Assembly: GCA_042577045.1 (NCBI GenBank)
Contig: JBHPEK010000001.1
Location: 15,173-79,172 of the forward strand
DNA length: 64,000 bases
Source: Patescibacteria group bacterium
GTDB lineage: Bacteria; Patescibacteriota; Minisyncoccia; JAHISW01; Tagabacteraceae
Reading direction: 5' to 3'
The notes beneath the pieces are model-generated. The model searched no databases. It was not told where the DNA came from and saw only the letters and a program-made list of their open reading frames with translations. This document shows, piece after piece, positions 8,277 through 63,044 of this stretch (position 1 is its first letter; each line of letters begins with the position of its first letter). A program made the position numbers and the translations under genes.

Positions 8277-8320
8277 TAAACTTAGCAAATACTTACGATC
8301 GTAAGTATTTGCTAAGTTTA
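8277..8320. repeat. perfect 44-nt even palindrome centred on ACGATCGT (family P)
   Basis: taaacttagcaaatacttacga|tcgtaagtatttgctaagttta. Confidence 0.9.
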
Positions 8321-13059: not shown

Positions 13060-13070
13060 CATATGTTTTT

Positions 13071-13740: not shown

Positions 13741-13767
13741 ATCCATCGACATCCGATGTCGATGGAT
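13741..13767. repeat. TCSGA-centred element, class A, perfect 27 nt
   Basis: atccatcgacatc-c-gatgtcgatggat, 12 nt downstream of the RAYT-1 stop. Confidence 0.9.
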
Positions 13768-13779
13768 CGATAAAAGCTA

Positions 13780-14493
13780 CTAATCTAAAACGATATCTCT
13801 TATCTTTTCTAAATCAATTTCAGACCACTCTCTCAAAAACTTCTCGTAGTCTTTCTTTCCCCTAAACTGATCTGTGATTATTTCTGTTCCGGATAAAATT
13901 AAATCTTCAAAATCGTCTTGTAGATAACTTTTCAAACTAGACCATGGGTATTTAATAAGTTCTTTCTTTTTTAAATTCCAACTTTTTAAATTCCCCCCTC
14001 TCCAGTCTTTGCTGTCAATAAAATCTAATGGGTTAAGATGGATATACAAAGAAAGATGAAGAAGATAATTATTTGAATCAATATGTTTTGCTTTAAAATT
14101 ACTTTCAAAAAGAGAACCTTTCCGTTCTTGTTTGGTGTTTATATATTTTGCAATTGAAATATTACTCTTACGAAGAAAAGTACTTATTCCACCCTCCGTT
14201 AATTCTTTTACCAAAAGGTGATAGTGATTCGGCATAATTGAATAAGCAACGACATCAACAAGTTTATCACCTCTCCATGCTATATCTACTGCTTTTCTTA
14301 AGCTTACATTTTTGTAATTTCTTAAATAATCAAACGCCTTACTTGATTCTGTTGAATTTGCCAACAAAAAACATTGAGTAAGTTTATTTGCATTCTCATA
14401 GTTCTCAAATTCCGGAATATTTAATATTGTTCTGCTGTAAACGTGATAATATTCTCCTGAAACAAATTGGTCTTTTCTTATCATAATATTCAT
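13780..14493 (-). CDS. HUH/Y1 tyrosine transposase, IS200/REP-associated (RAYT-like), copy 1
   Basis: MPNHYHLLV (HUH) and LYIHLNP (catalytic Tyr) about 60 aa apart. The longer ORF to 14607 only translates the upstream hairpin. Confidence 0.8.
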   Translation of the reverse strand: MNIMIRKDQFVSGEYYHVYSRTILNIPEFENYENANKLTQCFLLANSTESSKAFDYLRNYKNVSLRKAVDIAWRGDKLVDVVAYSIMPNHYHLLVKELTEGGISTFLRKSNISIAKYINTKQERKGSLFESNFKAKHIDSNNYLLHLSLYIHLNPLDFIDSKDWRGGNLKSWNLKKKELIKYPWSSLKSYLQDDFEDLILSGTEIITDQFRGKKDYEKFLREWSEIDLEKIRDIVLD

Positions 14494-14503
14494 AAGTCTA
14501 TCA

Positions 14504-14526
14504 CCATCGACATCGGAAGTCGATGG
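14504..14526. repeat. TCSGA-centred element, class A with a hybrid inner arm
   Basis: ccatcgacaTCGGAagtcgatgg; exact reverse complement of 15046-15068. Confidence 0.9.
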
Positions 14527-14621
14527 ATAAAGCTTGACTTGTTTAACGACTCGTGATAGAAATTGGTGGAATGAGTTTTTGACAATAAAATATAAAATGT
14601 AGAACAAGGAAAGGAGGCAAA

Positions 14622-15002
14622 ATGACAGAAATAAAGAAGATTTCCCGAGAAAATTGGGAAAGTTCTAGAGATAAGTGGGTTAAGATAGTTGAAAAAACAA
14701 AAAATCGTGAAAGATTTGTTCATCAACATGGTTTTCCCTATCTCCGAGCAAGTGGCAAATGCGGATATTGTTTTAATGTTTTTAGTTATTGCAAAAGTTG
14801 CCATCTTAACAAAACAAAAGTGGGAATAAGAAGTATTTGTGGTGATGTCTATTGGGGTGTTCCGAAGACTATTTTTTGGAAATACGTCAACGAAATGAGG
14901 AAATCGATCGAAGATCCCAATTCTGTTAATTGGGATACGGCAACGAAGTGGGCTCAGCAAATACTAGATGCGATTCTAGCAGACGAGCCCGAAAAAGAAT
15001 AA
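14622..15002 (+). CDS. Cys-rich small protein, paralog C
   Basis: GGAAAGGAGG RBS; MTEIKKISRENWES...; CGYC...CKSC...C; divergent from RAYT-1. Confidence 0.7.
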   Translation: MTEIKKISRENWESSRDKWVKIVEKTKNRERFVHQHGFPYLRASGKCGYCFNVFSYCKSCHLNKTKVGIRSICGDVYWGVPKTIFWKYVNEMRKSIEDPNSVNWDTATKWAQQILDAILADEPEKE

Positions 15003-15011
15003 AAACAAAAA

Positions 15012-15028
15012 CCCCGACGATGTCGGGG
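15012..15028 (+). terminator. terminator of paralog C
   Basis: ccccgac-gat-gtcgggg plus a T-run. Confidence 0.7.
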
Positions 15029-15045
15029 CTTTTTAATTTTTACCG

Positions 15046-15068
15046 CCATCGACTTCCGATGTCGATGG
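15046..15068. repeat. TCSGA-centred element, class A hybrid (inverted copy of 14504-14526)
   Basis: ccatcgactTCCGAtgtcgatgg. Confidence 0.9.
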
Positions 15069-18344: not shown

Positions 18345-18380
18345 TTTAGCATTTACTTACGATCGTAAGTAAATGCTAAA
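18345..18380. repeat. perfect 36-nt palindrome centred on ACGATCGT (family P)
   Basis: tttagcatttacttacga|tcgtaagtaaatgctaaa. Confidence 0.9.
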
Positions 18381-25697: not shown

Positions 25698-25727
25698 ACC
25701 ACTTATCCACGATCGTAAGTAAGTGGT
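25698..25727. repeat. family P palindrome (centre ACGATCGT), imperfect
   Basis: accactta-tcc-acgatcgt-aag-taagtggt. Confidence 0.7.
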
Positions 25728-25871
25728 ATTATGTATTGTGTTTTTATTTCTAACATTGCTAGTTTGGAAAAACACCGAACTGAAAACTAAACCACTTATC
25801 CCGTGTTATGTGATGTAACCAGAAATTTCTTTTCCTTATTATTCTTTTTTCGATAATTTATTTTAGGGCTT

Positions 25872-26461: not shown

Positions 26462-28498
26462 ATGTCAACCATGAAATATCACATCATCACATACGGCTGT
26501 GGAGCCAATCATGCCGATTCAGAAAGGATCGAAGCGAAGCTTCACGCACTTGGACACACAAAAGCCGCCAACAAGAAGGTGGCTAATTTGATAGTGATTA
26601 ATTCTTGCTCGGTGCGCAAGTCAGCTATGGATCGTCTTTATGCACAAATAAACAAACTAAAAACCAAGAAAAAGAAAGTAATTTTGGCAGGATGCATCTT
26701 AGAAAAAGACCTAAAAAATTTGAAAGACAAGGTAAGTGAAGTTTGGCACCCAGATGAGTACTTCGACTTAATGCCAATTTATGCAGATGAAGTTGGTGTG
26801 TCTGTCCCCATTATGACGGGGTGCAACAACTTTTGCACATATTGTGCTGTTCCTTACACCCGTGGACGAGAAAAATCTCGCCCAGCAAAAGATATTGTCG
26901 ATGAAATAAAGAAACTTGTGGCAAGCCCCGCCGGGCGGGATAAAAAAGAAATTTGGCTATTGGGTCAAAACGTAAACAGTTACCGATCTGGTAAAACAAA
27001 CTTTCCAAAACTTTTACAGAAAATAGATAAAATACCCGGCAAGTTTTGGGTTCGTTTTATTTCCCCACACCCAAAAGACTTCTCGATTGAATTAATAAAA
27101 ACAATTAAAAAATGTGAAAAAATTACTGAATACATAAACGTGCCTGTTCAGTCTGGAGACAATGAAATACTAAAAAGAATGAATAGAAACTACACGCGCG
27201 AACACTATATAAAACTTGTAAACAGAATTAGAAAAGAAATACCAGACGCATCTATATCCACAGATACCATTGTTGGCTTCCCTGGGGAAACAAAAAAACA
27301 ATTCTTGAATACTAAAGATTTATACAAAAAATTAAAATTTGATATGGCATTTCTAGCTGAATACTCTCCTCGTCCGGGGACTTTTTCAGCAATGATGATG
27401 AAAGACAACGTAAGCCATACCGAAAAAGAAAAACGAAAAAAAGAACTAAATGACATTTTAACCAAAACTGCACTAGAGAATAATAAAAAATATATTGGAA
27501 AAACAGTAGAAGTTTTAAATGGACGAACTCGCACCAATAAGCTGGTTACCCTACACGATACCGAGTATCGTGTAGGGCCAAGTGAATTCTTGAATGTAAA
27601 AATTACAGGAGCTGAATCTTGGAGACTAAAAGGGGAAATTGTTAAAAAAATAGTAGTTGTGCTTGGGCCTACTGCTTCTGGAAAAAGTGGTTTAGCTGTT
27701 GAGATAGCTCAAAAATTCCCTTCTGAGATTATCTCTGCAGATTCTAGACAAATTTACAAAGGAATGAATATCGGTAGTGGAAAAATAACAAAAAAGGAAA
27801 TGAAAGGAATAAAACATCATCTTCTTAACATAGTTAGCCCAAGAAAAATATATTCGGCAGGAGAATTCAAAAAAGAAGCTCAAAAATGTATCGAAGGAAT
27901 ATTGAAACAAGACAAAACGCCTATCATTTGTGGTGGAACAGGTTTTTATATCAACTCGCTTTTGGGTGGAAACATTGCCGAAGTAGAACCAGATTGGAAC
28001 TTGAGAAAAAAACTTGAGGAAAAAACTACAAAACAACTTTTTGGCCAACTGAAAAAACTAAAACCCCAAAGAGCAAAAAATATTGATTCCCAAAACAAAC
28101 GCCGACTAATACGGGCTATTGAAATAGCCAAATCTGCATCGAAGTCGGACTTCGACGCAATATCGAAGTCCGACTTCGATGTGTTGTATTTAGGAATTAA
28201 AAAAGACGGAGAAAAGCTAAAAAAAATAATTGATAAGAGGGTGGACGAAATGATTGAAGAAGGATTAGAAAAGGAAGTAAAAAAACTTGTTAAAAAATAT
28301 GGGTGGACGAAGACTTTAAAAAATACAATTGGATACCAAGAATGGAAAGAAGACAATTCAGAAGAAAAGATAAAGGCCCATTCACACCAATACGCAAAAA
28401 GACAAATAACTTGGTTTAAGAAATATGCACCGAAAACACACTGGCTTGGCAACAAAAAAGAAGCATTAAAATTAGTAAGAAACTTTTTAAAGAATTAA
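26462..28498 (+). CDS. miaB-miaA: fused MiaB (radical SAM methylthiotransferase) - MiaA (tRNA dimethylallyltransferase)
   Basis: UPF0004 N-domain, CNNFCTYC radical SAM cluster and TRAM domain, followed by a P-loop GPTASGKS and ADSRQIYKGMNIGS. Start is at 26462 or 26471. Confidence 0.85.
   Translation: MSTMKYHIITYGCGANHADSERIEAKLHALGHTKAANKKVANLIVINSCSVRKSAMDRLYAQINKLKTKKKKVILAGCILEKDLKNLKDKVSEVWHPDEYFDLMPIYADEVGVSVPIMTGCNNFCTYCAVPYTRGREKSRPAKDIVDEIKKLVASPAGRDKKEIWLLGQNVNSYRSGKTNFPKLLQKIDKIPGKFWVRFISPHPKDFSIELIKTIKKCEKITEYINVPVQSGDNEILKRMNRNYTREHYIKLVNRIRKEIPDASISTDTIVGFPGETKKQFLNTKDLYKKLKFDMAFLAEYSPRPGTFSAMMMKDNVSHTEKEKRKKELNDILTKTALENNKKYIGKTVEVLNGRTRTNKLVTLHDTEYRVGPSEFLNVKITGAESWRLKGEIVKKIVVVLGPTASGKSGLAVEIAQKFPSEIISADSRQIYKGMNIGSGKITKKEMKGIKHHLLNIVSPRKIYSAGEFKKEAQKCIEGILKQDKTPIICGGTGFYINSLLGGNIAEVEPDWNLRKKLEEKTTKQLFGQLKKLKPQRAKNIDSQNKRRLIRAIEIAKSASKSDFDAISKSDFDVLYLGIKKDGEKLKKIIDKRVDEMIEEGLEKEVKKLVKKYGWTKTLKNTIGYQEWKEDNSEEKIKAHSHQYAKRQITWFKKYAPKTHWLGNKKEALKLVRNFLKN
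28136..28158. repeat. TCSGA-centred element, class D, inside the miaA part (in frame)
   Basis: gcatcgaagtc-g-gacttcgacgc. Confidence 0.8.
28160..28182. repeat. TCSGA-centred element, class D, inverted partner, in frame
   Basis: atatcgaagtc-c-gacttcgatgt; with 28136-28158 it encodes SKSDFDAISKSDFD. Confidence 0.8.
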
Positions 28499-35372: not shown

Positions 35373-35421
35373 ATCTGTGTACTGAGAGAGATGTTGTCTC
35401 TCTCAGGAGCTTCCAACAGAT
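35373..35421. repeat. composite palindrome: class B outer arms with nested CTGAGAGAGA inner arms
   Basis: atctgtgtactgagagagatgttgtctctctcaggagcttccaacagat; 6 nt downstream of the RAYT-2 stop. Confidence 0.8.
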
Positions 35422-35427
35422 ACCAAA

Positions 35428-36081
35428 TTATTCTATTATGAACTCTTTTATGTCTTCGAACCTGCTCTTACTTTTGGTTTTGCAGCTTTTTAGAAATTCT
35501 TCATATTCGTCGTAATTTTTTAAAGGAGTCCATTTGTATTCTTCAAGAAATTTTTTTGCCTTACGCCAATCTTTTAAGCCCTCCTCTTTCCACCTAGGCT
35601 CAAAAAGATCTAGCGGGTTTAGATAAATATATTGTTTTAAATAATTTAAATATTCATCTTTATCTATTAGAACTGCCTTGAACTTTCCCTGAAACAAAAC
35701 TCCACTTCTCTCATATTTTTGATTAAAATAATTAGTGTAGCCAGTTCCCAGTTTTTGCATAAAACTGGAAATTCCGCCATCTTCCAATTGTTCAAGAATT
35801 AAATGAAAATGATTAGGCATTAAACAAGAGCCATAAAATTTAACTACGGACTCTCTGTCCTCTTTTTTTACTATGTGGGAAGTCGGACTTCCCACAGATA
35901 CCGCTCCTTCGCTAACACTTATACGACGAAACAGATTAATAGAAGAGTTCTTATCATTAAAATCTCTTAAGCTAAAAAGGAAGCGATGGTAGTCTTTGTC
36001 GTCCATAAAAACCTTACGTTTGTCTGTCCCACGGTTAAAAACGTGATAAAAATGGTTATTTGCAAATTGAGGTTTTTTCAT
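35428..36081 (-). CDS. HUH/Y1 tyrosine transposase, IS200/RAYT-like, copy 2
   Basis: MPNHFHLIL (HUH), QYIYLNP (Tyr). Start is at 36081 (MKKPQF...) or 36108. Confidence 0.8.
   Translation of the reverse strand: MKKPQFANNHFYHVFNRGTDKRKVFMDDKDYHRFLFSLRDFNDKNSSINLFRRISVSEGAVSVGSPTSHIVKKEDRESVVKFYGSCLMPNHFHLILEQLEDGGISSFMQKLGTGYTNYFNQKYERSGVLFQGKFKAVLIDKDEYLNYLKQYIYLNPLDLFEPRWKEEGLKDWRKAKKFLEEYKWTPLKNYDEYEEFLKSCKTKSKSRFEDIKEFIIE
35874..35896. repeat. class B element inside the RAYT-2 CDS (in frame, encodes VGSPTSH)
   Basis: tgtgggaagtc-g-gacttcccaca followed by gatacc. Confidence 0.85.
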
Positions 36082-36107
36082 TACTTTTATTATATATACA
36101 TATTTCA

Positions 36108-36134
36108 TCTGTGGGAAGTCCGACTTCCCACAGA
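36108..36134. repeat. TCSGA-centred element, class B, perfect 27 nt
   Basis: tctgtgggaagtc-c-gacttcccacaga. Confidence 0.9.
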
Positions 36135-36580: not shown

Positions 36581-37801
36581 TTATTTTATGGAAGAAATAT
36601 TTTTTAATTTGTTAATAATATCTGGAAGAACTTTCAAAACATAATCTATGTCTTCTTTTGTGTTTTCCTTTCCCAAGCTGAACCGAACCGAACCATGCAC
36701 GTGCTCATGGCATCGGCCAATCGCTTTTATAACGTGTGAGGGTTCTAAACTATCCGAACTACACGCCGAACCGGTTGAGGAGGCTATTCCTTTGGCATCA
36801 AGGTATAAAATAATAGATTCGCCCTCTACTCCATGAAAAGAAATATTTATATTATTTGGAAGTCGGGCGTCTAAAGATCCGTTAATTTTGGAGTCGGGAA
36901 AAGTTTTTGAAAGATTTTCTATAAAATAATTACGCAATTCAATAAGACGAGCAGATTCTTTTTCTCTTTCCTTTTGGGCAACCTCTAGCGCCTCAGCAAA
37001 GCCAACAATGGCAGGAATATTTTCTGTTCCTGGACGAAGACCAGATTCTTGCCCACCACCGTAAAGTATTGGCTCAATTTTTAATCCTCTCTTTTTGTAA
37101 AGGCACCCAACTCCTTTGGGCCCATAAATTTTAGAACCGTTTAAAGACATTAGATCTATTCCCAACTTGGCAACATTTAAATCTAGAAAGGACGGGGTTT
37201 GAATAGCGTCGGTATGAAAATATGGTGTTTCAACTCCGTGTTCTTTTCGATGAGCACGAATTATTTTAGCAATCCTAGAGATTGGTTGAATGGTTCCTAT
37301 TTCATTATTGGCATACATAATAGAAACCAAGATCGTCTCTTTTCGAAGTTCTTTTTTTAATTCTTCTAAATCCACCAGTCCATCTTTATCTACATCTAAA
37401 TAACTAACTTCGAATCCCTCTTTCTCAAGTTTCTCGCAAGCATGAAGGACCGCGTGATGTTCTATACTGGAAGTAATGATATGTGGGAAGTTGGACTTCG
37501 CACGCTTGTTGTGGGAAGTCCTGAGAGAGATCTGATCTCTCTCAGTGCCCACAGAACCAAAAATGGCCAGATTGTCACTCTCAGTACCACTAGAAGTAAA
37601 AATAATTTCGTCTGGACGTGCACTCAAAATTTCGGACACTTTATGTCGAGCGTCAGAGATGGCTTTTTTGGCAACTCGACCCTCCTCATAAATTGAAGAG
37701 GCATTTCCAAAATCCACAGACCAAAAAGGCTCCATTGCCTTTTTAACAGCTGGATCTAGTTGGGTAGTTGCTGCATGATCTAAATATATTCTTTTCATCA
37801 T
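36581..37801 (-). CDS. nifS: cysteine desulfurase (NifS/IscS) carrying an in-frame repeat insertion
   Basis: GTESDN, PLP Lys region SLNGSKIYGPKG, catalytic SSTGSACSS. Confidence 0.9.
   Translation of the reverse strand: MMKRIYLDHAATTQLDPAVKKAMEPFWSVDFGNASSIYEEGRVAKKAISDARHKVSEILSARPDEIIFTSSGTESDNLAIFGSVGTERDQISLRTSHNKRAKSNFPHIITSSIEHHAVLHACEKLEKEGFEVSYLDVDKDGLVDLEELKKELRKETILVSIMYANNEIGTIQPISRIAKIIRAHRKEHGVETPYFHTDAIQTPSFLDLNVAKLGIDLMSLNGSKIYGPKGVGCLYKKRGLKIEPILYGGGQESGLRPGTENIPAIVGFAEALEVAQKEREKESARLIELRNYFIENLSKTFPDSKINGSLDARLPNNINISFHGVEGESIILYLDAKGIASSTGSACSSDSLEPSHVIKAIGRCHEHVHGSVRFSLGKENTKEDIDYVLKVLPDIINKLKNISSIK
37482..37504. repeat. degenerate class B element inside nifS
   Basis: tgtgggaagtTggacttcGcacG. 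Confidence 0.7.
37510..37553. repeat. composite class B/inner-arm element inside nifS
   Basis: tgtgggaagtcctgagagagatctgatctctctcagtgcccaca. Confidence 0.85.
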
Positions 37802-41512: not shown

Positions 41513-41539
41513 TCTGTGGGAAGTCCGACTTCCCACAGA
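41513..41539. repeat. TCSGA-centred element, class B, perfect
   Basis: tctgtgggaagtc-c-gacttcccacaga followed by tacaaaaaa. Confidence 0.9.
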
Positions 41540-46883: not shown

Positions 46884-46931
46884 ATCTGTGGGAAGTCCTG
46901 AGAGAGATAGTATCTCTCTCAGGACACAGAT
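46884..46931. repeat. composite class B/inner-arm palindrome
   Basis: atctgtgggaagtcctgagagagatagtatctctctcaggacacagat followed by accaaaaaa. Confidence 0.85.
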
Positions 46932-46944
46932 ACCAAAAAACACC

Positions 46945-46984
46945 CTCCCACTATGAAAACCTTACTTGGTTTTCATGGTGGGAG
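46945..46984. repeat. 17-bp-stem hairpin of another arm type
   Basis: ctcccactatgaaaacc-ttactt-ggttttcatggtgggag (1 mismatch). Confidence 0.75.
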
Positions 46985-47008
46985 TCGAAATATGCCTTAG
47001 TTTCAACT

Positions 47009-47031
47009 ACGTCGACGTCCGACGTCGACGT
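47009..47031. repeat. TCSGA-centred element, class C, perfect
   Basis: acgtcgacgtc-c-gacgtcgacgt, preceded by tttcaact. Confidence 0.9.
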
Positions 47032-47036
47032 TTATA

Positions 47037-47056
47037 CGACATCGGATGTCGATGGA
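47037..47056. repeat. class A element with truncated left arm
   Basis: cgacaTCGGAtgtcgatgga. Confidence 0.7.
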
Positions 47057-47071
47057 TTTAAAAACAAAAAA

Positions 47072-47095
47072 CCCCTGCTTCGCTAAAAACAGGGG
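47072..47095 (-). terminator. terminator of 47141-47755
   Basis: cccctg...cagggg flanked by A/T runs. Confidence 0.6.
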
Positions 47096-47140
47096 TTTTG
47101 GGTTTTAATTAAGTGACCAAGGACAAAGTGTCCAAGAAAG

Positions 47141-47957: not shown

Positions 47958-50072
47958 TTACGCGTCTAGGTTTTCAACTGCCTTGGCGTGAGTCTGAATA
48001 AAGAGTTTCCTTGGTGCCACCTCTTTGCCCATCAAGACATCAAATGTTTTATTTGCTTCAGACACATCTTCAACTGTGACTTGCTTCAAAACTCTCCTTT
48101 CTGGATCCATAGTAGTTTCCCACAATTGCCCCGGATTCATTTCTCCAAGACCCTTGTATCTCTGAATTCTAATTCCTTTGAGTTTGTTTTCGTCTGCCTT
48201 TGCTTCATCAATCCCGACGTCCGCCTTCGGCGAAGTCGAGGACTCACGATTTTGTTCCTCCAGCTCTTCTGGAGACAAAATCGGAGCTTCCTTTTTCCTC
48301 AACTTCTTCTCCTTGAGCATCTTTTCCACAATCTTATCTTTCCCCTCGTCATCATAGGCATATTCAATTGTTTTTCCAGACTGAACTTTATAGAGAGGTG
48401 GATTGGCAATATAAAGATAGCCCCTGTTTATAATTTCTGGGAAATATCTAAAAAACAAAGTGAGATAAAGTGCTTTAATGTGAGCACCGTCTACATCGGC
48501 ATCGGTAGCAATAATTATCCTGTGATAACGAATCTTTTCAATATCAAAATCATCTGAGACAGCTGTGCCCAGCGCAGTAATTAAAATTTTAATCTTGTCG
48601 GATTGGAGCGCTTTGTCCAATCGTGATTTCTCGATGTTTAAAATTTTACCAAACAAAGGCAAAATGGCTTGAAACCCTCTATCTCTAGCCTGCTTACAAC
48701 TACCGCCGGCACTATCACCCTCGACAATAAAAAGTTCAGAATCTTCTGGATTTTTATTTCGACAATCCGCCAACTTACCCGGAAGAGTTAGGCCGTCTAG
48801 GGCACCTTTTCTAAGAACACTTTCTTTGGCAGCTTTAGCTGCTTTTCTGGCACGCAGGGCCAAGGAAACTTTCTCGATAATTGCTCTGGCGTCTTTAGGG
48901 TTTTCTTCAAGAAAATAAGAAAATGCATCACTAAAAATACTTTCCGTCGCTGTGCGGGCTTCGGGGTTACCTAGTTTTGCTTTTGTTTGCCCCTCAAATT
49001 GTGGCTCTCTTAATTTAATAGAGATAATGGTGGTTAACCCTTCTCGTACATCGTCGCCGGTAAAATTGTCATCGGAATCTTTAATTAATCCATTTTTTCT
49101 ACCATAATCATTTAATGTCCTAGTTAGAGCTGTCCTAAACCCTGTAATATGCATTCCCCCTTCTGGAGTATAAATATTATTTGCAAAACCCATTTCTCTA
49201 GCCTTAAGATCATCTACGTACTGAAGCGCCACTTCCACCAAAATCTGCTGTTTCTCGTCCTCTTTAGAAACATAAAAGATACTTTGATGTTGAGCTTCTA
49301 ATCCTTTATTTAAATAAGAAACATATGAATGTATGCCACCTTCAAAATAAAAAGTGTGGCTCTTGTGCAAGTTTTCATCTTTTTCCCTGTGATCACGAAC
49401 AGCGATTTTAATTCCTTTTACCAAGTATGCTTGCTGACGCAAGTGTCGCAAAACTCTTTTCCATTCATAGTCTGGAATTTTTTTATCTTCCCCCAAAAAA
49501 ATTTCTTTATCGGGAACAAATGTAATAGACGTACCTGAACCACTACACTTGGAGCCTTTTTTAACTTTGGACTTGGGTTTACCTTGTTGATATTCTTGCG
49601 ACCAAAGAAAGCCATCTCGACAAATTTCGGCTGTAAGATCTTTAGACAAAGCATTCACCACAGAAACACCCACTCCATGTAAGCCTCCAGAAATTTTATA
49701 AGAATCACCACCAAACTTACCCCCAGCATGAAGAGTGGTCATCACTGTTTCTAGCGCAGAAACCTTTGTTTGTTTATGTATGTCTACTGGTATTCCTCGG
49801 CCATCATCTACGACTTGCACCTTATGGTCTGGTAAAAATGTAATAGAAATGTTTTTGGCATGACCCGCCATGGCTTCATCTATAGAGTTGTCTACCACTT
49901 CCCATACCAAGTGATGAAGGCCATCTATACCTGTGGAACCAATATACATACCGGGGCGCTTTCTAACTGGGTCAAGACCCTCTAAAACATAGATGTCTTT
50001 TGCCCCATAACTTACTTCTTTTTTTGCTTGTCCCGACTTTTTTTTCGATGTTATTTTTTTCGGACTTGCCAT
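47958..50072 (-). CDS. gyrB: DNA gyrase subunit B
   Basis: GHKL ATPase (GLHHLVWEVVDNSIDE), TOPRIM (EGDSAGG), QRYKGLGEM. Confidence 0.95.
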   Translation of the reverse strand: MASPKKITSKKKSGQAKKEVSYGAKDIYVLEGLDPVRKRPGMYIGSTGIDGLHHLVWEVVDNSIDEAMAGHAKNISITFLPDHKVQVVDDGRGIPVDIHKQTKVSALETVMTTLHAGGKFGGDSYKISGGLHGVGVSVVNALSKDLTAEICRDGFLWSQEYQQGKPKSKVKKGSKCSGSGTSITFVPDKEIFLGEDKKIPDYEWKRVLRHLRQQAYLVKGIKIAVRDHREKDENLHKSHTFYFEGGIHSYVSYLNKGLEAQHQSIFYVSKEDEKQQILVEVALQYVDDLKAREMGFANNIYTPEGGMHITGFRTALTRTLNDYGRKNGLIKDSDDNFTGDDVREGLTTIISIKLREPQFEGQTKAKLGNPEARTATESIFSDAFSYFLEENPKDARAIIEKVSLALRARKAAKAAKESVLRKGALDGLTLPGKLADCRNKNPEDSELFIVEGDSAGGSCKQARDRGFQAILPLFGKILNIEKSRLDKALQSDKIKILITALGTAVSDDFDIEKIRYHRIIIATDADVDGAHIKALYLTLFFRYFPEIINRGYLYIANPPLYKVQSGKTIEYAYDDEGKDKIVEKMLKEKKLRKKEAPILSPEELEEQNRESSTSPKADVGIDEAKADENKLKGIRIQRYKGLGEMNPGQLWETTMDPERRVLKQVTVEDVSEANKTFDVLMGKEVAPRKLFIQTHAKAVENLDA
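48215..48238. repeat. probable degenerate TCSGA-type element with a nested mini-hairpin inside gyrB
   Basis: cgacgtc-c-gccttcggc-gaagtcg, within a C-terminal insertion (SSTSPKADVGIDEA). Confidence 0.45.
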
Positions 50073-56069: not shown

Positions 56070-56098
56070 GTTGCTACGACGTCGGACTTCGTAGCAAC
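56070..56098. repeat. hairpin with a chimeric C/D TCSGA core
   Basis: gttgctacga-cgtcggact-tcgtagcaac. Confidence 0.85.
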
Positions 56099-60377: not shown

Positions 60378-60488
60378 ATGTATTTATCTAAACGTGGCAA
60401 AAAATTAAACAGGGCTGTTTGGATTTTCATCAGTATTTTGGCAATCATCGGAATGGTGGGTTACCTCATTGTACCACTTTTCTACTAA
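60378..60488 (+). CDS. possible 36-aa membrane peptide
   Basis: TATAAT at 60363-60368; MYLSKRGKKLNRAVWIFISILAIIGMVGYLIVPLFY. Confidence 0.35.
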   Translation: MYLSKRGKKLNRAVWIFISILAIIGMVGYLIVPLFY

Positions 60489-62311
60489 TCATTTCCTCCA
60501 CCCTGAATCATCTTCAAGAACACGTCGTGGGGAACATCTACCCGGCCGTGTTTGCTTAATTTTTTCTTCCCCTTTTTCTGCTTCTCTCGCACTTTCATTT
60601 TTCTAGTTATGTCTCCACCATATAGACCAGCGGTGACATCTTTTTTAAGAGCAGATATTTTTTGAGCAGCAATAATGCGCCCATTTGCTTTCACTTGGAT
60701 TTTAATCACAAACAGCGCTCTTGGCAAAAACCTCTTTAATTTCTCGGCTAAATTTTTTGCATCCCTTTGCATATCTTTTTTGGCAATCATTTTTGAAAAT
60801 GCTGGAATGACCTCTTCATTTAAAAGAACTTCTAAGCGAGTAAGTTCCCCCCTTCTATCTTCCATAATTTGATAACTAAAAGACGCATATCCAGACGTAG
60901 CACTTTTTAATTCTTCAAAAAAATTGTTCATCATTTCGCGTAGGGGCATTTGGGCTTTTAAAACAAATCTCTTCTGCTCACCAAATCCTTCTGTATCTCC
61001 CACCATGGCATCTCGTCTTTTTAAGACTTGCATAACTTCTCCCAACTTATCAAAAGGAGTTATAATTTTTACTTCAACCCATGGTTCGAGAATTTTATCT
61101 ATTTGAAAATGTTCAGGAAAAAGCGCTGCTGAATAAATCTCTTTTTTATTGCCATTTTTATCTTCTATTTTGTAAACCACGCTGGGAGTAGCAACCACAA
61201 CAGCAAGCTTAAACTCACGCTTTAGGCGTTCCACAATAATTTCAAGATGGAGCATTCCTAAAAAACCACAACGAAATCCACGCCCCAAAACACCACTTTC
61301 CTCTTCTTCAAAATCTAAAGAGCTGTCTGAAAGCTTCAATCTTTCTAACGACTGTTTTAAGTCCGTAAAATCGTCTTGAGACTCTGGGTATATACTAGCC
61401 CAAACAACTGGCGCGGGTTGTTTATATCCCTTTAGCGCCCCCAAGGTACTACCTTTGGAAAGAAGTGTATCTCCAACAGAGGCAACACCTGCCTCTTTAA
61501 CATTCGTTACAACATATCCAATTTCTCCTGTTTTTAGATCTGGAGTTTCTAGGGGGGTGGGGCTAAGAATGCCAATTTCCCCAACTGTAAAATTTAGACC
61601 AGCTTGATGTAAAAATACCTTATCACCTTTTTTGATTTGGCCATCTGTGCATCGTACATATAAAATAATACCTTTGTGAGGTGAATACTCGAAATCAAAA
61701 ACCAAACCCCTGAATCCACACGACACCGAGTTTCGTGTATCTACACGAAACTCGGTGTCGTGTGGGTGTGGAGGTGGGATACGAGAAATAATTTCTTTGA
61801 GCAGGGCCTCTACGCCTTCCCCTGTTTTAGCTGATACTTCTAAAATATCTTTTTCCTCGCAAGACAAAATTTCCAAAATTTCTTGTTTCGTCTCTGGGGT
61901 CTGTGCATTCGGACTATCTATCTTGTTAATAACGGGAACTATGGTTAACCCCAACTCTTTTGCCATTTCTAAGTTACTAATTGTTTGCGCTTGAACTCCT
62001 TGAGTGGCATCTACTAAAAGTACTGCCCCCTCAACAGCCTTAAGAGAACGCGACACCTCGTAAGAAAAATCTATATGTCCTGGAGTATCAATCAAATTGA
62101 GTTGATACCCCTCAAAACTCATTCGGACTGGTTGCATTTTTATGGTAATACCTCTTTCTCTCTCTAACTCCATTTGATCTAAAACTTGTTCTTTCATTTT
62201 TCTCTTCTCTATGGTCGCAGTCAATTCCAAGAACCGATCAGCCAAAGTTGACTTACCGTGGTCAATATGCGCAATAATACTAAAATTTCTAATATTGTTT
62301 TTTTCTTGCAT
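60485..62311 (-). CDS. lepA: translation elongation factor 4 (LepA) carrying an in-frame palindrome
   Basis: G-domain AHIDHGKST, DTPGH, NKID; LepA-specific C-terminus. Confidence 0.95.
   Translation of the reverse strand: MQEKNNIRNFSIIAHIDHGKSTLADRFLELTATIEKRKMKEQVLDQMELERERGITIKMQPVRMSFEGYQLNLIDTPGHIDFSYEVSRSLKAVEGAVLLVDATQGVQAQTISNLEMAKELGLTIVPVINKIDSPNAQTPETKQEILEILSCEEKDILEVSAKTGEGVEALLKEIISRIPPPHPHDTEFRVDTRNSVSCGFRGLVFDFEYSPHKGIILYVRCTDGQIKKGDKVFLHQAGLNFTVGEIGILSPTPLETPDLKTGEIGYVVTNVKEAGVASVGDTLLSKGSTLGALKGYKQPAPVVWASIYPESQDDFTDLKQSLERLKLSDSSLDFEEEESGVLGRGFRCGFLGMLHLEIIVERLKREFKLAVVVATPSVVYKIEDKNGNKKEIYSAALFPEHFQIDKILEPWVEVKIITPFDKLGEVMQVLKRRDAMVGDTEGFGEQKRFVLKAQMPLREMMNNFFEELKSATSGYASFSYQIMEDRRGELTRLEVLLNEEVIPAFSKMIAKKDMQRDAKNLAEKLKRFLPRALFVIKIQVKANGRIIAAQKISALKKDVTAGLYGGDITRKMKVREKQKKGKKKLSKHGRVDVPHDVFLKMIQGGGND
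61716..61765. repeat. perfect 22-bp-arm inverted repeat inside lepA
   Basis: ccacacgacaccgagtttcgtg-tatcta-cacgaaactcggtgtcgtgtgg. Confidence 0.9.
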
Positions 62312-63017: not shown

Positions 63018-63044
63018 TCTGTGGGAAGTCGGACTTCCCACAGA
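63018..63044. repeat. TCSGA-centred element, class B, perfect
   Basis: tctgtgggaagtc-g-gacttcccacaga followed by tac. Confidence 0.9.

Follow-up and report, generated by a model that had tools for sequence, protein, structure and literature searches.

Three copies of a short dispersed palindrome in a metagenome-assembled genome of an uncultured member of the Patescibacteria group carry a second palindrome exactly at their symmetry centre. The copies lie in a contiguous stretch of 64,000 nucleotides (nt), termed here the window, which has a G+C content of ∼37% and whose proteins have Patescibacteria group entries as their database matches. At each of the three sites, a 25-nt palindrome of the form CTGAGAGAGAT-N3-ATCTCTCTCAG replaces the central base of a repeat termed class B, and one outer arm of the class B repeat is shortened. 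A preliminary description of this DNA had claimed both the central position and the partial deletion of one outer arm in each copy, and both observations stand, the central position being borne out by the junctions and by a plain orthologue of one composite at locus L030. The explanation favored here, which has about an even chance of being correct, is that nesting took place once or rarely, and was followed by copying between resident class B repeats via their identical arms and then by decay of one arm.

A search for perfect hairpins in the window reveals several odd-length palindrome classes with a common tip, TC-S-GA, and, besides classes A to D, a few single-copy palindrome types. The classes and some of their copies are as follows.

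Class A repeat, CCATCGACATC-S-GATGTCGATGG, with further copies at 13069, 15046 and 47033
Class B repeat, TCTGTGGGAAGTC-S-GACTTCCCACAGA, with plain copies at 35874, 36108, 41513 and 63018
Class C repeat, GCGTCGACGTC-S-GACGTCGACGC
Class D repeat, ATCGAAGTC-S-GACTTCGAT
41513..41539, no strand assigned, plain class B repeat
63018..63044, no strand assigned, plain class B repeat
28137..28181, plus strand, two tandem class D repeats in frame in a miaB-miaA fusion gene, encoding SKSDFD twice

Palindromes centred on TCSGA, counted where at least 8 of 11 stem pairs are formed, number 18 in the window against 1.5 expected in random sequence of the same composition, and the TCSGA tip is invariant in all of the window's repeat classes. 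The repeat architecture consists of a 5′ GTAT-CTG foot, a stem of 11-14 bp and the TC-S-GA tip. The foot, as (G)GTAT-CTG, is conserved in the class B lineage and its relatives; class A is without such a tag. Repeat copies are also found intergenically and, in frame, inside protein loops. The first of the two class D copies at 28137-28181 has an A.C mismatch at position 9.

Conserved genes with in-frame repeats comprise MiaB-MiaA (SKSDFD twice in the window, and SVGGPTSN at ∼2747-2775 of locus L027) and a cysteine desulfurase (37482-37553 of the window); a repeat at 9654-9676 of L011 is, judged by coordinates, in frame in GlmS. The central base in classes A to F, both in the window and in orthologous repeats of L007, L011, L014, L017 and L030, is C or G in every case, A and T being absent there. 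Orthologous sites may switch between the two: the codon is CCG (Pro) or CGG (Arg) in the in-gene copy of the transposase gene described below, and the second cysteine desulfurase repeat has a central G in one orthologue and a central C in the other. As the arms are symmetric, such a switch is indistinguishable from inversion of the whole palindrome.

Other palindromic sequences are present as well. Perfect palindromes without a loop, with ACTTACGATCGTAAGT as their core and arms of up to 22 bp (8277-8320, 18345-18380 and 25700-25728), form a family of their own that is unrelated to the TCSGA classes. At 61716-61765, inside the open reading frame (ORF) at 60485-62311, lies a perfect palindrome with 24-bp arms, CCACACGACACCGAGTTTCGTGTA-TC-TACACGAAACTCGGTGTCGTGTGG. 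Two mosaic clusters, at 1492-1600 and 46884-47100, have their modules in a common order (ACAGATACCAAAAAA foot, class C, class A, GGATTTAAAAACAAAAAACCCC, terminator) and resemble the enterobacterial BIMEs, which are mosaic repeat clusters.

The window encodes two RAYT-like Y1 transposases, and each gene is flanked by repeats of its own class.

35428..36108, minus strand, RAYT-B, Y1 transposase with HUH motif NHFHL and a YxxxNP motif, class B flanks
36108..36134, no strand assigned, class B repeat at the 5′ end of RAYT-B
35874..35896, minus strand, class B repeat in frame inside RAYT-B, encoding VGSPTSH
13780..14493, minus strand, RAYT-A, RAYT-like Y1 transposase, class A flanks
13741..13767, no strand assigned, perfect class A repeat at the 3′ end of RAYT-A
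14504..14526, no strand assigned, class A′ repeat at the 5′ end of RAYT-A, CCATCGACATC-G-GAAGTCGATGG, mismatched (A.A) at stem position 3 alone
15046..15068, no strand assigned, the 23-mer of 14504 in reverse complement; with 14504 it flanks a 519-nt segment holding a cysteine-rich ORF

Both proteins pass the PF01797 cut-off of 23 bits (RAYT-B with 36.1 bits and RAYT-A with 28.4 bits), and the RAYT alignment has NHFHL/NHYHL and Y(I)(Y/H)LNP as invariant motifs. The sole NCBIfam family matched by either is REP_Tyr_transpos (NF047646), at 36-40 bits and thus under its 80-bit cut-off. The RAYT-B protein is 100% identical to one NCBI entry, and a sequence search of the Protein Data Bank with RAYT-B returned no match. 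The flanking repeats are 36108 and the composite at 35373 for RAYT-B, with class B found elsewhere at 41513 and 63018, and 14504 and 13741 for RAYT-A, with the same class elsewhere at 13069, 15046 and 47033. Since the two RAYT-like Y1 genes each have their own flanking palindromes, the window represents a REP/RAYT-type system in a Patescibacteria genome. A whole element in several near-identical copies, as in the IS200/IS605 family, was not found: only the short palindromes are repeated, RAYT-A and RAYT-B are 34% identical, and a third RAYT-like protein (P0122), encoded on the same source contig outside the window, is 72% identical to RAYT-A. With P0122, the genome has at least three RAYT-like genes.

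The system shares with known REP/RAYT systems (REPtrons) the Y1 HUH genes flanked by palindromes of their own class, the dispersed, mostly intergenic location of the palindromes and their mosaic clusters, the presence of several classes per genome, each with its own RAYT, and a short conserved motif before the hairpin (PMC8266576). It differs in that the 5′ motif is GTAT-CTG and not GTAG, so that neither a GTAG nor a GTGG foot is present, and in that all window classes have the TC-S-GA tip in common. The window proteins also score below the threshold of the curated RAYT model and have no sequence match to solved structures, and the host group is new; a full-text literature search for REPs in connection with Patescibacteria returned nothing relevant.

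The repeat inside RAYT-B is situated upstream of the HUH motif, whereas the in-gene repeats of RAYT subclass 2.4 are situated between the HUH and Tyr motifs (PMC6006769). Homologues of RAYT-B with 70-78% identity display palindrome-encoded peptides at the same place (VGDPISH, VGNPISH and VGNRISH), and the in-gene repeat of each homologue matches the variant of its own genome (L007 10184-10210, L014 10184-10210 and L017 5286-5316). The cysteine-rich small ORF at 14622-15002, which is bracketed by the inverted class A′ copies (14504-15068), has two paralogues, at 1015-1425 and 1615-2007, that adjoin class C and class A repeats; the ORF has no Pfam match. The spacer between DprA and RAYT is 82 nt in the syntenic locus L027 and ∼660 nt in the window, so the bracketed segment with the cysteine-rich ORF looks like an insertion. 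The small ORF beside the RAYT gene of L007 is unrelated to the cysteine-rich ORF, and the NUDIX genes that adjoin RAYT-B in the window and the RAYT gene in L014 are not orthologous.

The composites and their inner palindromes are located as follows.

35373..35421, no strand assigned, composite 1, in the place of the 3′ flanking repeat of RAYT-B, with the stop codon of that gene 7 nt upstream
35382..35406, no strand assigned, inner palindrome of composite 1, CTGAGAGAGA-TGTTG-TCTCTCTCAG
37510..37553, minus strand, composite 2, in frame in a cysteine desulfurase gene, encoding VGTERDQISLRTSH
37521..37545, no strand assigned, inner palindrome of composite 2, CTGAGAGAGATC-T-GATCTCTCTCAG
37482..37504, minus strand, degenerate class B copy adjoining composite 2, in frame (RAKSNFPH), orthologous to a perfect copy in L030
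46884..46931, no strand assigned, composite 3, intergenic, in a mosaic repeat cluster between two convergent terminators
46898..46922, no strand assigned, inner palindrome of composite 3, CTGAGAGAGATA-G-TATCTCTCTCAG

The inner pattern CTGAGAGAGA-N5-TCTCTCTCAG occurs at these three positions with 0 chance matches expected, and a search of the rest of the window, even with 3 mismatches allowed, found no further occurrence and hence no solitary copy. The tips of the three inner palindromes differ. In 46884 and 37510, the inner element begins directly after an intact class B arm (..GGGAAGTC/CTGAGAG..), and the right junction of 46884 reads ..CTCTCAG/GAC.. As plain class B is TCTGTGGGAAGTC-S-GACTTCCCACAGA, the 25-mer occupies the place of the central base. 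A REP-type palindrome is thus found recurrently, in three window copies, at the symmetry centre of a longer palindrome.

The lesions of the outer arms can be read from the sequences. Composite 46884 consists of ATCTGTGGGAAGTC, an intact class B left arm, then CTGAGAGAGATAGTATCTCTCTCAG, and then GAC-----ACAGAT, a right arm without TTCCC. In composite 35373, it is the left arm that is affected; it reads ATCTGT-----GTA and is without GGGAA. Composite 37510 has an intact left arm and the right arm TGCCCACAGA; on the coding strand, AAGTC is replaced by CA in one arm, a net loss of 3 nt. Each of the three composites is predicted to fold, as single-stranded DNA, into a two-tier hairpin with an outer stem of 6-7 bp, a one-sided bulge of 5 nt, an inner stem of 10-13 bp and a loop of ∼3 nt. 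The predicted energies, -11.7 to -17.8 kcal/mol, are well below those of shuffled sequence; the fold of 46884 has the value of -17.8 kcal/mol (z -5.8).

Several other identities for the composites were considered. They are not terminators, as one copy is located within a coding region and the neighbouring genes are equipped with terminators of their own, and they are not an assembly artefact, as a sequencing read is longer than the elements and no two of the three copies are the same. An Rfam search of the window recovered only four tRNAs and no family at the composites. Scans of genome and metagenome collections for the inner palindrome gave six matches (in Atribacteria, Prevotella and others), none of them with class B arms, and these are regarded as unrelated hairpins for that reason. 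Nor do the composites have the layout of a REPIN: the composite half, ATCTGTGGGAAGTCCTGAGAGAGAT, is not itself a REP-like palindrome, and on inspection only its 4-nt ends pair.

The cysteine desulfurase gene provides a site at which nested and plain forms can be compared directly. The window protein, with composite 37510, has 14 extra residues in the loop concerned relative to a solved homologue. In the nearest available cysteine desulfurases, the same position is occupied by VGSPTSH (P0242), VGGRTSH (P0243) and VGSPTSN (P0244). The DNA encoding P0242 (L030) has at the same codons a plain class B repeat, GTGGGAAGTC-C-GACTTCCCAC, and after it another class B copy, which is perfect; the window has GTGGG(CA)-CTGAGAGAGATCAGATCTCTCTCAG-GACTTCCCAC, followed by the degenerate class B copy. 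The repeats of P0243 and P0244 are plain too, and more distant homologues are without any such segment. Relative to the plain L030 site, composite 37510 shows a net gain of 21 nt (24 added, and 3 lost from one arm), so that the reading frame is kept. This plain and nested pair at one orthologous site locates the extra DNA at the central nucleotide. The cysteine desulfurase homologues vary from 384 to 458 residues in length, partly owing to such repeat segments.

A second composite site has plain counterparts as well: the 3′ flanking repeat of the RAYT gene is composite in the window and plain in L007, L014, L017 and L020. Together with the cysteine desulfurase site, these plain repeats in relatives indicate that at least two of the composite sites were formerly occupied by resident plain repeats.

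The relatives, which were reached via the RAYT-B homologues of 70-78% identity, also provide information on the origin of the inner palindrome. RAYT genes flanked by their own repeats are found in L007, L011, L014, L017 and L020, and a RAYT-A homologue with the same layout in L022. The palindromes that flank RAYT-B homologues have a common outer part, (G)TATCTG...CAGATA, and an inner half that varies by genome: GGAAGTT in L007, GGATATC in L011, and both TGGACATC and TGGATATC in L014. In L017, the stand-alone repeats flanking the RAYT gene are GTAT-CTGAGCGACATC-S-GATGTCGCTCAG. The arm of the inner palindrome, CTGAGAGAGATC, matches the L017 arm CTGAGCGACATC at 10 of 12 positions, a closer match than to any window class, and one that rests partly on features generic to the superfamily (CTG..ATC). 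The inner element has, moreover, 12-bp arms and one central base, which is the architecture of the free-standing repeats. On this resemblance and architecture, the inner palindrome is a repeat of the same superfamily, and a repeat nested in a repeat is a fair description of the composites. The repeats flanking the RAYT gene in L020 (1248-1285 and 2017-2049, and the same in L021) show partial arm duplications, GACTTCCC[GCAAACTTCCC]ACAGAG and [TCTGTG]TCTGTGGGATATC, which show that arm rearrangements of the slippage type are a frequent feature of the family.

Repeats embedded in other palindromes have already been described: GTAG-15 of Anabaena variabilis, GTAG-23 of Thermomicrobium roseum and CGTC-1 of Halothiobacillus neapolitanus (Di Nocera et al., 2013, PMC3733652). 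As in the composites, a repeat occupies the middle of a longer palindrome. Some of those species have no copy of the outer palindrome that lacks the insert (PMC3733652), whereas the outer palindrome here is RAYT-associated and abundant in plain form, the inner element is never alone in the window, and an orthologous plain site exists for comparison. Insertion sequences that target REPs (IS1397, ISKpn1, IS621, ISPpu9/10 and others) likewise insert at one fixed position of the REP (PMC1525189). These are complete insertion sequences that encode DDE or DEDD transposases of their own; the insert here is a palindrome of 25 nt that has no coding capacity and lacks a target duplication. The in-frame copies, which have as hosts the cysteine desulfurase, MiaB-MiaA and the RAYT itself, are comparable to Rickettsia palindromic elements and to intragenic REPs, which are also in frame in loops of conserved proteins (PMC3733652, PMC6006769), but at 21-45 nt the window repeats are much shorter than the Rickettsia elements.

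The question of whether the three composites arose independently can be approached by comparison of the copies. Composite 35373 aligns with the reverse complement of 46884 at 43 of 49 positions with one 1-nt gap (score 36), and with 46884 in direct orientation only with two gaps of 5-6 nt (score 25). In the inverted alignment, both copies read ATCTGT-----GT(A/C)CTGAGAG and have the same 5-nt deletion, located 3 nt from the junction. As there is only one base of microhomology at the deletion, two identical independent deletions are unlikely, and the common arm deletion points to a common composite ancestor or donor. Judged from these alignments, 35373 and 46884 are not independent events. The foot ACAGATACC, complementary to the conserved GGTAT tag, is on the same side in both copies; with the inverted match, this places the interior in inverted orientation relative to the tag. 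The arm lesion of 37510 differs from that of the other two, and a second independent nesting event behind this copy is possible. Descent from one composite, the finding that the preliminary description had itself named as contrary to its proposal, is thus seen for 35373 and 46884 by way of their common deletion, with 37510 set apart by its different lesion.

In the explanation favored here, a 25-nt palindrome of the same superfamily would have replaced the base at the centre of a class B repeat, which would yield the two-tier hairpin. This nesting event probably occurred once or rarely. The hairpin tip is the only single-stranded part of the repeat and the only one that can accept an insert without destruction of the stem. 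The nested form may then have spread to other resident class B repeats by copying, probably conversion, through the identical 14-bp outer arms. As these arms are palindromic, a donor would be able to pair in either orientation, and pairing in either orientation would leave the same arm deletion in two copies with opposite orientation relative to the GGTAT foot. The deletions in one arm, which probably came last, break up what is otherwise a 26-bp perfect palindrome. The mechanism by which REPs spread is still unresolved (PMC8266576).

The preliminary description had read several other copies as halves of different classes joined at the centre, and had seen in them, and in the composites, the product of cleavage and strand exchange at the TCSGA tip. 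Two of the copies in question, besides 14504 and 15046, are the following.

56070..56098, no strand assigned, GTTGCTACGACGTC-G-GACTTCGTAGCAAC, 14-bp stem with one C.T mismatch at position 4
48215..48238, minus strand, weak imperfect hairpin inside gyrB, an unconvincing member of the family

Copies 14504 and 15046, said to join class A outer arms to a class B/D-like inner half, differ from class A by the single base of their A.A mismatch. The odd arm, GAAGTC, is a class B/D left-arm sequence found in the right arm, and the copies are therefore not a left half of A joined to a right half of B/D. Their core, CGACATCGGAAGTCG, recurs in L017 within an inverted doublet (1871-1917), and its presence in another genome shows that the variant is an inherited subtype. 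The RAYT-A homologue of L022 has one asymmetric repeat on both flanks. The supposed C/D hybrid at 56070-56098 is a stem with one mismatch, and the C/D-like halves at 48215-48238 fold no better than shuffled sequence (z -1.07). Stem mismatches across the window are at positions 3, 4, 7, 9 and 10 from the centre; they scatter along the arms and are not confined to a central junction. Since any change in one arm makes the two halves differ, the argument from a junction at the centre is circular. The chimeras of the window are ordinary mismatch variants or intermediates of compensatory change that have themselves been copied.

The in-gene repeats of two relatives bear on the same point. In L014, this repeat has a G.T pair and is intermediate between the two flanking variants of its genome, which is the usual path of compensatory change. 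In L017, the in-gene repeat combines two classes, with a left arm of the TCTGTTGG class and a right arm of the CTGAGCG class, and is a true half-element chimera. Both classes have identical inner 13 nt, and the junction therefore cannot be placed. A comparison at strain level, of 16 locus pairs from near-identical assemblies, revealed no gain, loss or flip of a repeat.

The rival explanation that survives best is that of the preliminary description, whereby a Y1/RAYT protein repeatedly and independently inserts a mobile inner palindrome into the class B TC-S-GA tip and exchanges halves by the same reaction; it is considered rather unlikely. Placement of the inner palindrome exactly at the central base, with identical junctions wherever these are intact, is in accord with such a reaction, and so are the two sites that were resident plain repeats, as targeted insertion predicts, and the differing tips of the inner palindromes; yet independent insertion does not predict the identical 5-nt deletion, 3 nt from the junction, in 35373 and 46884, and a solitary donor copy is absent from the window. 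The exchange of halves can point to one true chimera, the L017 in-gene copy, but the inner 13 nt common to its two classes prevent placement of its junction at the centre, and the chimeras of the window itself are scattered single mismatches, one of them inherited across genomes. The TCSGA tip is invariant in all classes, but its predicted loop is only ∼3 nt.

The preliminary description cited as precedent the rolling-circle HUH Rep proteins, which nick hairpin loops and belong to the same enzyme superfamily. In rolling-circle Rep origins, the conserved nick site is exposed in a loop several bases long; the conserved feature here is the TC-S-GA tip with its small predicted loop. The nearest characterized relatives of the window proteins, TnpA-REP and IS608 TnpA, also differ from the Rep proteins in that they cut at the foot of the hairpin. 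Characterized REP-associated transposases cut at a CT or CA dinucleotide on the 5′ or 3′ side of the hairpin, with the site selected by a 5′ tetranucleotide as in IS608, and foot cutting applies to characterized RAYTs and IS200/IS605 transposases alike (PMC8266576). A CT is present in the conserved foot (ATCT/G). The kinship of the copies, the scattered mismatches and the foot-cutting RAYTs together argue against tip cleavage and strand exchange as the source of the composites and chimeras. Tip cleavage by Y1 proteins in the founding event is possible, and nothing in the data requires it. The more general proposal that RAYT-like enzymes of Patescibacteria use the exposed TC-S-GA tip of one repeat hairpin as the site of integration for another repeat is regarded as quite unlikely. 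Were it true, the hairpin tip would be both recognition element and integration target, a new target choice for Y1 transposases, and tip integration would explain the diversification of repeat classes and their clustering.

In another scheme, the long two-tier hairpin would be ancestral, and plain class B, in principle also the plain repeat of L030, would have been formed by precise central deletion, with no insertion at all. Loss of the centre is a general tendency of long palindromes. Central deletion of inverted dimers has been proposed as the origin of ‘double-foot’ repeats (PMC6006769), and among the four NifS sequences with the repeat, insertion and deletion are equally parsimonious provided that the three plain sequences are a clade. 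All relatives examined, however, have plain forms as a rule, and so do all three RAYT-associated positions; each deletion would have had to leave exactly one base, C or G, behind, and the inner palindrome resembles an independent class of stand-alone repeats. Such an origin is very unlikely. Formation of the composites with no mobile insert, either by inverted repeat dimerization as in REPINs or by stepwise growth of the tip through template switching in replication, is likewise very unlikely: a real inverted dimer of ‘nested’ appearance does exist in a relative (L017 1871-1917, two inverted copies of ACCGACATCGGAAGTCGGT that fit a REPIN layout, -24.6 kcal/mol, z -7.1), L020 has arm duplications, and orthologous sites have now C, now G at the centre, in line with what loop inversion predicts, but the half-unit ATCTGTGGGAAGTCCTGAGAGAGAT is not a repeat-like palindrome and the inner 25-mer has the 12-bp arms and single central base of a free-standing repeat.

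Nesting once or rarely, followed by copying between resident repeats, remains the preferred reading, and the data point to ordinary repeat dynamics (copying, conversion and arm decay) and not to a new enzymatic reaction. The natural pair formed by L030 and the window illustrates that such pairs can reveal the entry point of new repeat DNA. The findings also extend REP/RAYT systems to the Patescibacteria. The genomes of these bacteria are very small, yet many repeats are tolerated, including in-frame copies in essential genes.
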